Origin: an uncultured Poribacteria bacterium
GTDB lineage: Bacteria > Poribacteria > WGA-4E > WGA-3G
Direction: 5' to 3'
DNA length: 64,000 nucleotides
NCBI GenBank assembly: GCA_951813565.1
Contig: OX638351.1
Span: 3,488,001-3,552,000 of the forward strand
The notes beneath the pieces were generated by a model. The model searched no databases. It was not told the origin of the DNA and was given only the letters and a program-made list of their open reading frames with translations. Position 1 is the stretch's first letter; every line of letters starts with the position of its first letter. Made by a program: the position numbers and the translations under genes. Of this stretch, positions 6,772-53,615 are shown one piece after another.

Positions 6772-6954
6772 GAGGGTGTGCATAAATATTTGGCGCATCA
6801 ACACAGACAGGGAAGACGCCAGGTGCCGCTTGGTTTATAGAAATGCGTTTGTAGTCGCGCAATTCTTTGCCAAATCAACGCAGCATGCGCGTATGGCATG
6901 CTGCGCCTCTTTGAACTTATGGACGGAAACCCACGGCGTGTGCCTACTACCTTT
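6772..6954 (+). mobile_element. truncated MITE (left part of the element at 28917-29259) carrying a 34 bp micro-element at 6871-6904
   Basis: Begins GAGGGTGTGCATAAATA; near-identical to the 28917 copy; no right TIR. Confidence 0.8.
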
Positions 6955-7256
6955 TGTGCCCATAGGGTGATTATTTTGTTCTCGCTATCAAAGAAATCAA
7001 GGATAACACCTTTGCGCTTCCCTGCGTCTTTAGAAGGATCAAATTGTCGAAATGAACGGTCTTTCAGTTCAGATTTAACCCGTTCTTCCTCTTCACTATC
7101 TACTGGTTCTAATGGATTGCCACAAGACATATAAACGAAAGAGATTAAAATGAGAATTGCTGAGAATAAAAAAGCATCGATGTCTTTTATGTTAACTTTC
7201 TGGTATATTTGGTGCAAAATGTTTGGTCTTTGCATCTCTTTTCCTTCTATTTTCAT
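6955..7256 (-). pseudogene. lipoprotein-like gene truncated by the MITE
   Basis: Hydrophobic segment plus MSC; after ITLWAQ the frame runs into MITE sequence. Confidence 0.6.
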
Positions 7257-7420
7257 TATGTGTATTTTATGAAATGAATTTTAACATTGCAAAAGATGAT
7301 TTGTCAAGAACATGTTGAATTTCTAAATCGCAAACCACTTTATTACATCAGAAAATGTGCTTGATTCATTAGTTTCCCTCTGCTACAATGACAACTAATT
7401 CATTTTCGCGAGAAGGTCTT

Positions 7421-8449
7421 ATGCAAGAAATTGTAGTTGATGCATCAAAGTTGCACGATTTCGCTCGGTCACTATGTGAGAAGGCTGGTTTGTCATCAGA
7501 ACATGCAGCGCAAATGGCTAAGCTTCAGGTACAAACCGATCTGCGCGGGGTGCATTCACACGGAACGCGTGCGCTGCCCGGTTATCTCAACCAAGTCCTT
7601 GATGGGAATTTAAACCCAAAACCAGACCTCCGTATTGTATCAGAGGGACCGAGTTTCGCTGTCGTAGATGGTGACAACGGGATGGGACATCTGGCAAGTA
7701 CACTCGCTATGGAGACAGCGATAGCAAAGGCAAAAATAACCGGTGTTGCTGCGGTAGGTGTGCATAATGCAGGACATTTCGGTGCAGCAGCATGCTATTC
7801 AATTATGGCTGTGGAAAATCGGATGATCGGGTTTTCAACAACGAATACAGGTAGACCCTCTATTGTGGCACCTGGTGGTGCAGAAGCAGTGGTCGGAAAC
7901 AGCGCTATGAGTTATGCTTTGCCAACTGGCAATGGACATCCGATAGTATTAGATATGGCGTGTGGCGTTTCCTCATGGGGTAAGATTGGAACGTTACGAA
8001 TGTACGGCAAACCGATCCCTGAAGGATGGCTTTTGGACGATTCAGGGCAACCGAGTAGCGACCCAAATCAAGGAGGTTTAATGGCACCCGCTGCAGGACC
8101 GAGAGGCTACGGATTGGCACTCATTATGGGAATTTTGGCTGGTCCTCTGACTGGTGGTATGATGCCTTGCAATAAGAATAGCACATCATCTGAGCATTTC
8201 TTCATTGCAATAAACATTGAAAGTTTCACAGATTATGATGCCTATATCTCTGATGTAAAGCAAGGAATCGGCAAGATTCACGGTGCGAAAACGGCAGAAG
8301 GGTTTACGCAAGTCTACCTACCCGGTGAAATTGAGTGGAACAACTACGATAAATGGATAGAGAGCGGCATTCCTATTCACGTAGATCACTTACGAAACCT
8401 TGAAAGCATCGCTGAGAAATTAGATATAAACATATTTTGGGAGTGGTAA
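7421..8449 (+). CDS. Ldh_2 family (malate/L-lactate/ureidoglycolate-type) oxidoreductase
   Basis: DLRGVHSHG, DGDNGMG, HFGAA, LDMA, LPGEIE. Confidence 0.9.
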   Translation: MQEIVVDASKLHDFARSLCEKAGLSSEHAAQMAKLQVQTDLRGVHSHGTRALPGYLNQVLDGNLNPKPDLRIVSEGPSFAVVDGDNGMGHLASTLAMETAIAKAKITGVAAVGVHNAGHFGAAACYSIMAVENRMIGFSTTNTGRPSIVAPGGAEAVVGNSAMSYALPTGNGHPIVLDMACGVSSWGKIGTLRMYGKPIPEGWLLDDSGQPSSDPNQGGLMAPAAGPRGYGLALIMGILAGPLTGGMMPCNKNSTSSEHFFIAINIESFTDYDAYISDVKQGIGKIHGAKTAEGFTQVYLPGEIEWNNYDKWIESGIPIHVDHLRNLESIAEKLDINIFWEW

Positions 8450-8452
8450 TAT

Positions 8453-51898: not shown

Positions 51899-52030
51899 TG
51901 TCTGAATCGCGGATTTCACGGAGAACACGGAAAATGTTATGTGTTTCCATATTCACCTTCACAAATAAACAGGTTGGATTATCAAAACATTCTTCTTTCC
52001 GCGTTCTCCGCGCCTTCCCTGATTCAGACA
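51899..52030. repeat. long imperfect inverted repeat (REPIN-like)
   Basis: TGTCTGAATC/GATTCAGACA and CGGAGAACACGGAAA/TTTCCGCGTTCTCCG. Confidence 0.6.
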
Positions 52031-52145
52031 ACCAGATAATGGAACTCACACAAGAAAAACATAAAACAAGATGTTTATGGTTAGAAAATTACCAAAATAT
52101 ATTTTTAATCTTCATGAAGTTTGTGTTACTATGTAGCAACTTGAG

Positions 52146-53288
52146 TTAAATATAGCCGGTAGACCCATCAGGACGGATAGGACAAGTTCGCTGCCAATGA
52201 ACGTACTCATTATCCGTAACAGCATCCTCGTTGATTTCCACACCGAATCCAGGACGATCTCGCAATTCCAGATACCCATCTTTCGGCATATACGGTTCAT
52301 CTACCCATGTATTCCAAGCACTTTCGGTTGGTAGGAGATATTCAAGGATTTTAAAGTTTGGGGTTGCAGCAGCAAAATGGACATTGACAGCTGTTGCTAA
52401 CGGCCCCATCGGATTGTGTGGCGCAATACTAACATAGTGTGCCTCAGCGATCGCTGCGATTTTGCGCATCTCTAACAATCCACCACAAACGCATATATCT
52501 GGCTGAATGATGTCTGCGCCCTGTGCAGCGATGAGATCAAGGAATTCAAATCGTGTATATAAGGACTCACCTGTTGCAAGCGGCACCTGCATCTGTGAGC
52601 GGAGGCGGGACCATGCAGGAATATGTTCTGGACGCAGCGGTTCTTCATAGAAATACGGATCGTAAGGTGCAAGCGCGTTGGCAAGCTGAAGTGCACGAAT
52701 CGGCTCAAAGATTTTCGCATGCGGATCGAAAGCAAATTCCCAATCGTCTGGCGTGTTGAGTCTCAATTGCTCAAAATAGGTAGCAGCCGCGTCACAGACT
52801 CGCCCCCATCGGTCTGAATCCGGGTTAAGTTGATAAGGGCTTGTTTTGAAAACGGTGAATCCCCAATCCTCATTTAGTTTACGGGCTTGATCAGCAGCTT
52901 CTATACCGTCTCTCCCTCCAATGCCACGATAAACGCGGATGCGGTCACGGGCGTGTCCGCCGAGAAGCATATACACAGGCAATCCAGCTGCTTTTCCACT
53001 GATGTCCCAGAGCGCATGGTCAATCGCTGAGATCACAGCGAGTCCTGCACCACCTGGCGGAAATCGGAACTGCTGATGTAGCTTCAGCATGATGTATTCT
53101 ATCCTGCGCGGATCGTCCCCTTGAATCATCTCAAAGATATAGTTTGCTATCGGTTCAACAGAGAGATCCGGTCCCGTAGAATACGCCTCACCCCATCCGT
53201 AGATGCCCTCATCCGTTTCGACTTTTATCAGCCCACGTGGGCGATTGCCGAAGTTTGCCATGAACGTTTGGATTGCAGTGATTTTCAT
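52146..53288 (-). CDS. mandelate racemase / galactonate dehydratase-like enolase superfamily enzyme
   Basis: TDEGIYGWGE, SAIDHALWDISGK, EEP, ATGE, IIQPD, APHNP. Confidence 0.92.
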   Translation of the reverse strand: MKITAIQTFMANFGNRPRGLIKVETDEGIYGWGEAYSTGPDLSVEPIANYIFEMIQGDDPRRIEYIMLKLHQQFRFPPGGAGLAVISAIDHALWDISGKAAGLPVYMLLGGHARDRIRVYRGIGGRDGIEAADQARKLNEDWGFTVFKTSPYQLNPDSDRWGRVCDAAATYFEQLRLNTPDDWEFAFDPHAKIFEPIRALQLANALAPYDPYFYEEPLRPEHIPAWSRLRSQMQVPLATGESLYTRFEFLDLIAAQGADIIQPDICVCGGLLEMRKIAAIAEAHYVSIAPHNPMGPLATAVNVHFAAATPNFKILEYLLPTESAWNTWVDEPYMPKDGYLELRDRPGFGVEINEDAVTDNEYVHWQRTCPIRPDGSTGYI

Positions 53289-53464
53289 CGATTGCAATGC
53301 TCCTGAGTTTATCAACAGAATTCTCTTATTACGTATATCGTGATATTATCAGATACTTTGAAACACGTCAAGAAAATTGTTCAATAGAATAGGACTATTT
53401 GATGAATAAAAAATATGTGGACACTCCTTGTCCGCCCGATTTTTGAGATTTAAACAGGTAAATC

Positions 53465-53615
53465 CAAATCAACGCTGAATACGCGTTTGGTATTCATCCA
53501 AATCAACGCAGCATGCGCGTATGGCATGCTGCCAAATCAACGCAGCATGCGCGTATGGCATGCTGCGGGGTTGAAAACCCGCCAAATGCCAAAAAGCGCA
53601 TTTGGCGTTGATTCA
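53465..53615. repeat. mixed array of three 34 bp micro-elements plus a 35 bp variant inside a REP
   Basis: Units 53465-53498, 53499-53532, 53533-53566 and 53581-53615. Confidence 0.88.

Follow-up and report, generated by a model that had tools for sequence, protein, structure and literature searches.

A hairpin-and-tail unit of 34 to 36 bases inserted between C and G in the genomes of Poribacteria from sponges

How can a repeat of fewer than 50 bases move within a genome? The question is raised by a window of 64,000 nucleotides (the whole stretch of DNA that was analysed; G000:C1:3488001-3552000) from the genome of an uncultured Poribacteria bacterium, G000, which comprises 5.43 Mb in one contig. 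A sequence-only reading of this window had proposed a family of hairpin micro-elements of 34-71 bp that insert at a C|G step (the bar marks the junction) inside repetitive extragenic palindromes (REPs). The genomes of Poribacteria that are sponge symbionts contain hundreds of copies of this unit, 34–36 bases long and pasted between a C and a G, and the hairpin-and-tail unit is among the smallest mobile DNAs seen. We know of no demonstrated answer to how repeats of this size move since the small dispersed repeats (SDRs) of Nostoc were described.

The motif GCATNNNNYGTTGATT occurred 16 times in the window compared with 0.01 expected from 100 shuffles, and CCAAATCAACG occurred 519 times in the genome compared with 8-35 in Markov models; 33 of these 519 copies were located inside open reading frames (ORFs). 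Written on the strand with the tail at the 3' end, the unit reads 5'-R-hairpin-GTTGATT-NN-3' and thus contains a 9-bp hairpin, a fixed tail of seven bases and two variable bases. Class A units (34-35 nt) have a 9-bp stem and a loop of 7-8 nt, followed by GTTGATT and the two bases. Class B units (35-36 nt) consist of GGGGAATGCC-loop-GGCATTC, a 3-nt bulge and CC, followed by the tail of class A, whereas class C units (71, 95, 119 nt and others) combine the class B head with a further hairpin and a double tail. With composites included, sizes range from 33 to >150 bp, which is wider than the range first proposed. The unit is asymmetric and lacks terminal inverted repeats. Its leader is AATCAAC on one strand and the host C on the other, without a 5' GTAG/GTGG (or CGTC) tag, and in predicted DNA folds the tail's first G pairs with the host C to the left of the unit. 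About 22 kb were parsed as units and composites within the intergenic mosaic. Rfam gave no match in the window.

The proposed covariation of the hairpin arms held in the full alignment. Among 252 distinct class A sequences, collected without a pairing filter, five of six tested stem pairs covaried, each exceeding all 1000 shuffles (mutual information of 0.48, 0.37, 0.27, 0.18, and 0.11, shuffle maxima 0.06-0.09); the second stem pair did not rise above the shuffles. The two weakest signals are soft, because the shuffles ignore relatedness and off-diagonal mutual information reached 0.17.

Evidence for insertion came from unique coding DNA. A 36-bp class B unit is located in frame within an lplA-like gene (PF21948). 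In an alignment of the best 14 orthologues from 40 genomes searched, the site was filled in three (G000, G064, and G074) and showed a clean 36-base gap in eleven, and two of the empty orthologues read exactly AATTCC|GAC. Since the unit sits in frame within a gene, REPs are not required as targets. A further unit was found inside a DDE transposase-like ORF present in two places. The idea that the units parasitise REPs was therefore too narrow, although repeats are indeed enriched: a repeated flank was found for 504 of 535 units compared with 52% of intergenic CG sites, an enrichment that is inflated because composites are copied together with their hosts. The 35-153 bp forms most often target the loop of the 34-bp form, and the host hairpins that carry units are REPs of their own REP-associated tyrosine transposases (RAYTs). 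A test of the distance to REPs used too strict a REP definition and was uninformative.

Further candidate empty sites were set aside. Locus 630777 is intergenic and could not be aligned, and the joint at 48243-48349 has only 26 bases on one side. Among 81 aligned conspecific metagenome loci (130 kb), one unit-sized difference (69 bp in L342) was observed; it was not counted as proof, as the left anchor is a repeated block of 73 nt and the sequences differ beyond it. Contigs of four read runs were broken at repeats and allowed no empty allele to be called, and the units break short-read assemblies. Taken together, our observations make us highly confident that the unit is mobile and structure-constrained, and they support the earlier description of it as non-autonomous and target-regenerating. 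The three conditions that would have refuted the sequence-only reading (no orthologous empty site, random junctions, no covariation of the stem) were each decided in its favour.

Units were removed iteratively, whereby 471 TG-tailed units were parsed at 522 loci and 155 tails were left unparsed. The junction of the TG form was C|G in 452 of 460 parsed cases, and hence not random. Flanks were C and G in 261/266 removals of class A (units not preceded by another tail), 105/106 of class B and 86/88 of class C, spanning 68, 29, and 29 distinct contexts, respectively, with search patterns that excluded the flanks. The base following a TG tail was G in 211 of 214 cases. In contrast, a CA tail was followed by C in 80 of 91 cases, which agrees with the proposal that variants ending in GATTCA use a different junction. 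The C|G step, the constant tail and the absence of a target duplication, one ambiguous G aside, were all confirmed. No tetranucleotide target was recognised: C|G alone is fixed and other flank positions vary.

The register of the cut was revealed by a unit starting with A in genome G042. It lies inside the host sequence GAAACCC|GACATG and reads CCC[A...TTTG]GAC, which means that the first base belongs to the element and that the cut falls between C and G. Units with the leader AACA were still found at C|G (7/7 in G042). These units bear on peel-and-paste transposition by an IS200/IS605 TnpA or a RAYT, in which the leader would act as a guide (AACG directing C|G by the TnpA-REP rule). The missing target duplication, the bulged hairpin, the ten Y1 matches and 28 near-identical tnpB-like ORFs in G000, and the guide rule itself (PMC3479197) would fit such a route. 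However, AACA leaders should not lead to C|G under this rule, so that AACG was rejected as a self-guide, and a tetranucleotide target is missing. The resident IS605 ends were likewise discarded as a source of the unit, being unrelated to it and following their own rule (AAAC to TTAG, AAAT to TTAA); the ends of three resident tnpB families are ...ATGAC or a similar sequence, with hairpins other than that of the unit. Moreover, none of 79 Y1 loci of the genus had units on both sides (11 gave no ORF by motif); of 12 further loci one did, next to an array of some other hairpin. Families that lack the unit also have the RAYT clade of L010, and target bases are not deleted by peel-and-paste. We regard this route as improbable.

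The proposal that units stack was borne out. Units located directly behind a TG tail start with G (94/94), whereas a start with A was seen in 50 of 506 units behind a host C. The 89 internal tails of 57 arrays were without exception TG, and non-TG tails were confined to the right end, the terminal tails being TG (22), CA (18), CG (16), and CC (1). Insertion recreates C|G at the left junction of a unit, so that further units are added on this side only; the split in the start base and the internal TG tails fit growth at this re-made junction. Most of the 15 arrays with three or more units have a period of one or two, which indicates that they were built by block duplication or read-through rather than by independent hits. 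Block duplication accounts for many copies and arrays, and composites spread together with host repeats. Any stretch from the foot of the hairpin to the tail can move as a single piece.

A paralogous empty site was found for 168 of the 220 class A units and for 42 of the 112 in class B, many of these sites being other stacks. For class A units at ground level, an exact empty join was found for 92 of 137, while 23 gave none and 22 had no usable empty site; for classes B and C the corresponding numbers were 76 of 194, 92, and 26. A stricter table gave usable empty sites at 254 of 514 sites. In this table, which rests on paralogues rather than true ancestors, clean joins were seen for TG tails in 16 contexts (113 copies) and for other tails in 5 (64 copies). 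Target bases had been lost at TG tails in 8 contexts (64 copies) and at other tails in 11 (13 copies), the latter with 1-4 bases missing, mostly at CC|T.

The loss of target bases is relevant to the explanation that no dedicated enzyme exists, and that nicks made by the RAYT of the host REP or by repair are followed by template switching through 1-3 nt of microhomology and by gene conversion between repeats. In its favour, non-TG tails have taken the place of target bases in 11 of the 16 contexts for which a usable empty site exists; TnpA-REP cuts C|T and one such enzyme also C|A (PMC8266576); RAYT genes are flanked by the host hairpins that belong to them; some unit-rich genomes gave no Y1 match; and whole mosaics are copied as blocks. 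Left unexplained are the near-absolute C|G rule over >100 contexts, the clean insertion in unique coding DNA and the covariation of the stem together with a fixed tail; in addition, the cited GTAG/GTGG guide rules lead to C|T, C|A, or C|C instead of C|G. We consider this explanation doubtful, but a serious possibility.

As the best model, to which we would give slightly less than an even chance, we suggest a nick-and-copy process with a logic like that of Helitrons and IS91. The unit would be a non-autonomous, single-strand, structure-dependent micro-element, on which an enzyme supplied in trans, possibly with HUH-like chemistry, nicks C|G at the foot of the hairpin. A second nick would fall at TTTG|G, nine bases past the hairpin, and the strand would be copied in from a free 3'-OH by rolling-circle logic. 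Read-through would then produce dimers, arrays and composites, and non-TG tails may arise where events are resolved through 1-2 nt of microhomology at different nicks, in most cases C|T or C|A, and target bases are lost. In the TG form, the left donor junction (C|G), the right donor junction (G|G) and the target (C|G) would all leave a G 3' of the break, as Helitron breaks leave a T. Helitrons themselves are described with TC...CTAG ends, an AT target, a hairpin terminator, read-through and circles (PMC4778049), and for bacterial interspersed mosaic elements (BIMEs) nick-primed copying with a second cut on the new strand was proposed (model 7B, PMC3333891).

Several observations weigh against nick-and-copy. 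Arrays can also arise by slippage or unequal recombination. Target bases were lost in 64 of 177 TG copies with a usable empty site, 54 of them in one host family; a founder insertion in a rare C|G variant could explain these copies. Neither circles nor excision junctions were seen in the contigs, and there was no replichore bias (210 versus 220 units; the GC skew is weak and the origin uncertain). No candidate enzyme for the unit emerged from the families searched. No PF01797 match was found in the unit-rich genomes G030 (a single contig with 117 class B matches), G017 (79 matches), and G021 (90), which are 92-97% complete and may have lost a Y1 gene. PF04986 (Y2) gave no match in 40 genomes, with a control profile likewise silent everywhere, and relaxase (MOBP) and TrwC gave none in five. 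Among 37 ORFs flanked by units on both sides in G000, none was transposase-like by its N-terminal sequence. The link to HUH enzymes drawn in the sequence-only reading is tentative, as in no case did the unit lie beside a RAYT as the REP of that gene, and the guide rule of TnpA-REP failed.

The search also covered reverse transcriptase (RT), Cas1, and IS110, and none of these, nor Y2, relaxase or TrwC, was a consistent partner of the unit. An RNA intermediate that is reverse-transcribed into a nick would account for one precise and one variable end, and G000 carries two RT genes, one adjoining cas1 at G000:C1:3988990-3992061 (L041) and one of 511 aa at 811749-813284 (L042). Searches of the unit-rich genomes G064, G028, G035, G042, and G030 found no RT, the gene being present in 14 of 32 genomes of the genus, and the sense bias between co-directional genes was weak (145 versus 116), which makes this route very unlikely. 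Off-target capture by Cas1-Cas2 or another integrase would explain why units are spacer-sized (33-36 nt), and cas1 was found in G000 and in three of five other genomes tested. This we hold to be scarcely credible: there is no site duplication, the composites of 71-153 nt have the same junction, cas1 was not found in G064 or G021, and IS110 was not found in G000. Integron attC sites share the motif GTTRRRY. A likeness to attC was rejected because the crossover would lie inside the unit.

A stricter version of nick-and-copy, which we consider rather unlikely, is a minimal rolling-circle transposon of 34 bases, whose single hairpin would signal where nicking starts (C|G) and where it stops (TTTG|G). 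If so, the nickase acting in trans would lie outside the searched Y1, Y2, MOBP-relaxase, TrwC, RT, and Cas1 families and would possibly be a host enzyme, and cargo placed between the hairpin foot and the tail would be carried into CG sites.

Across 121 genomes, the unit family is restricted to two genera of Poribacteria. The class A pattern with a TG tail was found in 30 of 31 other genomes of the genus and in 1 of 45 of the sister genus, and the class B pattern in 31/31, 39/45, and 0/44 of the genus, the sister genus and the remaining genomes searched, respectively. Class A units in sister genera mostly have non-TG tails, and a few occur in a third genus. A motif scan of named genomes gave almost only Candidatus Poribacteria records among the 115 matches listed, of which 80 carried a title, and all clear matches listed were Poribacteria. 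Sponge metagenomes were among the read sets richest in the unit. The matches in a Verrucomicrobia record (L280) and at the metagenome loci L344, L380, L441, and L325 have no hairpin and were treated as chance; the viral contigs searched gave one match without a hairpin and otherwise none.

All units reported in the window by the sequence-only reading were found there, but removal does not restore the host in every case. A 34-nt class A unit with a GCAGCAT arm and TG tail (6871..6904, minus strand) splits at C|G a host GTAG REP-like hairpin (6851..6909, plus), whose motif GTAGTCGCGCAAT occurs 239 times in the genome. A class A unit at C|G in a REP (29017..29169, minus) carries a class C composite in its loop, and its exact 8+8 join occurs 20 times. 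This composite (29037..29155, minus; 119 nt) consists of a class B head, a second hairpin, two tail-less inserts of 24 nt and a double tail. The joins at 6871 and 29037 show point differences and have no exact 8+8 match elsewhere; the proposed restoration was not confirmed as stated for these two. The 34-nt class A unit with a GCCAAAT arm at C|G (41958..41991, minus) has an exact 10+10 join present 30 times. Its REP and unit occur at the orthologous place in G044 and G034, while the rest of 29 other genomes have other repeats or none at this site, and no clean empty site.

An array of nine identical 35-nt class A units (48332..48646, plus) is followed by a tenth, ground-level unit (48647..48773, plus) that is split by a 92-bp element (48664-48758) with TACCAAATT ends and a TTA duplication. 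Only the removal of 48332-48773 restores the host. The 71-nt class C unit at 48967..49037 (plus) lies in the loop of a GTAGGGGCGGG hairpin. Here the claimed restoration failed: the join GGGCGGGTCTCCGTGCC is absent from the genome, compared with 58 copies of its T version and 38 of the filled form. The usual paralogous empties read CTCTGTG, with a host T that is replaced by C in the filled form, so that removal does not give the usual host. Three stacked 34-nt class A units at C|G (53465..53566, minus) share their host hairpin with a 35-nt CA-tailed unit at C|C on the opposite strand (53581..53615, plus; exact 10+10 join 26 times). The 3' end of another 35-nt CA-tailed unit occupies 1..14 (plus); its start lies 21 bases ahead of the window and follows a TG-tailed unit. 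A TA-tailed unit with a tail-less hairpin insert (48244-48271) is followed by a truncated unit (48218..48290, minus). Two features had been missed: the tail (GTTGATT-AG) and inner hairpins of a composite (320..375, minus) and a class A unit whose leader is CAT and whose junction is TG|T (27896..27929, plus).

The window also contains a RAYT-like Y1 transposase gene with an in-frame TAG stop (61656..62090, minus; PF01797, E 4.3e-11), which adjoins GTAGGAGCGAC hairpins; an uninterrupted relative is present in G074 (L105). Four tandem paralogous genes of about 300 aa each, one with a DUF3108-like match, are located at 24964-28888, and an IS1595-family transposase gene at 50770-51648 (minus) resembles an ORF cluster of 16 members in the genome (clusters built by shared 12-mers).

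Neighbouring repeat families were observed as well. A sister family of tail-less hairpins (window 348-375, 29073-29100, and 48244-48271; about 100 copies genome-wide) has a CAT leader in 100 of 121 hairpins and the common core ATRCC...GCGYAT. These hairpins sit in the left arm of class A or B units, where they add 24-26 nt and replace 0-4 target bases. The 92-bp element has TACCAAATT inverted ends, a 3-bp TTA/TAA duplication, and a REP inside, and 42 paired copies were found in a scan of one strand; its presence or absence relative to a conspecific strain at L390, L393, and L403 indicates that it is probably active. Each host hairpin family adjoins its own Y1 clade (L469-L476, L478, L480, L477): GTAGCACAAAC-type hairpins go with RAYTs of 240-260 aa, GTAGGAGCGAGC with the L010 clade and GTCCCTACGGGAC arrays with a class 1.2 Y1, a class whose proteins generally lack typical end structures (PMC6006769). 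In the IS605 family with the 28 tnpB-like ORFs (e.g. L001-L005), the left end occurs in two variants, between which guide and target covary (AAAC/TTAG, AAAT/TTAA). Perfect palindromes at G000:C1:1741339, 2029669, 3427143, and elsewhere consist of two left unit-host halves or of a tail on both sides of one hairpin, which suggests strand switching at the loop. In other genomes, tails are repeated two or three times as TTGATTCC units (L059, L101, L455).

Elhai et al. 2008 (Genome Res 18:1484) reportedly described SDRs of 21-27 nt that nest in other repeats and in themselves and show compensatory changes. The SDR1-8 repeats of Nostocaceae, compared here by description only (PMC4390886, PMC5861425, PMC3116915), are the closest known system: like the unit, they are very small mobile repeats, confined to a lineage and without a known enzyme. 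The unit shares with SDRs a length of <100 nt, dispersal, empty sites and compensatory change; it differs in being longer (33-36 nt core, composites >150 nt) and in belonging to a different phylum. SDR5 is reported to insert exactly between bases three and four of GCGATCGC, next to CG. Compared with this 8-base target the unit has one of 2 bases, and it has a fixed 7-base tail, two variable bases and one-sided stacking. SDR terms had no match in PMC3184786.

The unit also resembles REPs, REPINs, and BIME-RAYT systems in being a bulged hairpin of 20-40 nt with hundreds of intergenic copies in mosaics, in the cut 3' of C and in the nick-primed amplification proposed for them (PMC3333891, PMC3479197, PMC8266576, PMC3116915, PMC3733652, PMC6006769). 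Unlike these, it lacks the GTAG/CGTC tag at its foot and a guide-set cut, and no RAYT was found with the unit as its own flanking repeat; it occurs as single units and not as inverted doublets, has precise fixed ends and is a guest inside REPs. Palindrome-ended derivatives of IS200/IS605 share single-strand hairpin ends and the lack of a target duplication; the unit differs from them by the absence of a guide-matched 4-5 nt target and by ends unlike those of the resident IS605, and from DDE-type miniature inverted-repeat transposable elements by the absence of both terminal inverted repeats and target duplication. Helitrons are placed between A and T. In anatomy alone, the unit has the hairpin before a defined 3' end, the dinucleotide target and the missing duplication of Helitron and IS91 elements. 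Descriptions of Helitrons, IS91, and ISCR elements give no target duplication, a hairpin shortly before the 3' end, read-through and head-to-tail junctions (PMC4778049, PMC13181058), and a Helitron target dinucleotide whose second base is the first base of the element. However, one hairpin serves both ends of the unit in 34 nt, Y2 was not detected as reported above, and IS91 needs a tetranucleotide target (PMC4778049, PMC13181058). In scale the unit thus resembles a Nostoc SDR, and in the logic of its junctions a rolling-circle element.

In the literature listings and abstracts surveyed, no description of the unit family was found. New are the aligned intragenic empty site, the fixed register and the rejection of a self-guide, as well as the count of target-replacing junctions, the two-genus range and the unit-rich genomes without a Y1 match. 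The fixed register, the differing ends of lineages, the orthologous empty site and hundreds of junctions allow the cut sites to be stated and to be tested with short oligonucleotides. If the ends alone suffice, the unit would provide a very small, CG-targeting and duplication-free insertion signal that tolerates cargo. In the genome of a dominant sponge symbiont, units and composites build much of the intergenic mosaic.

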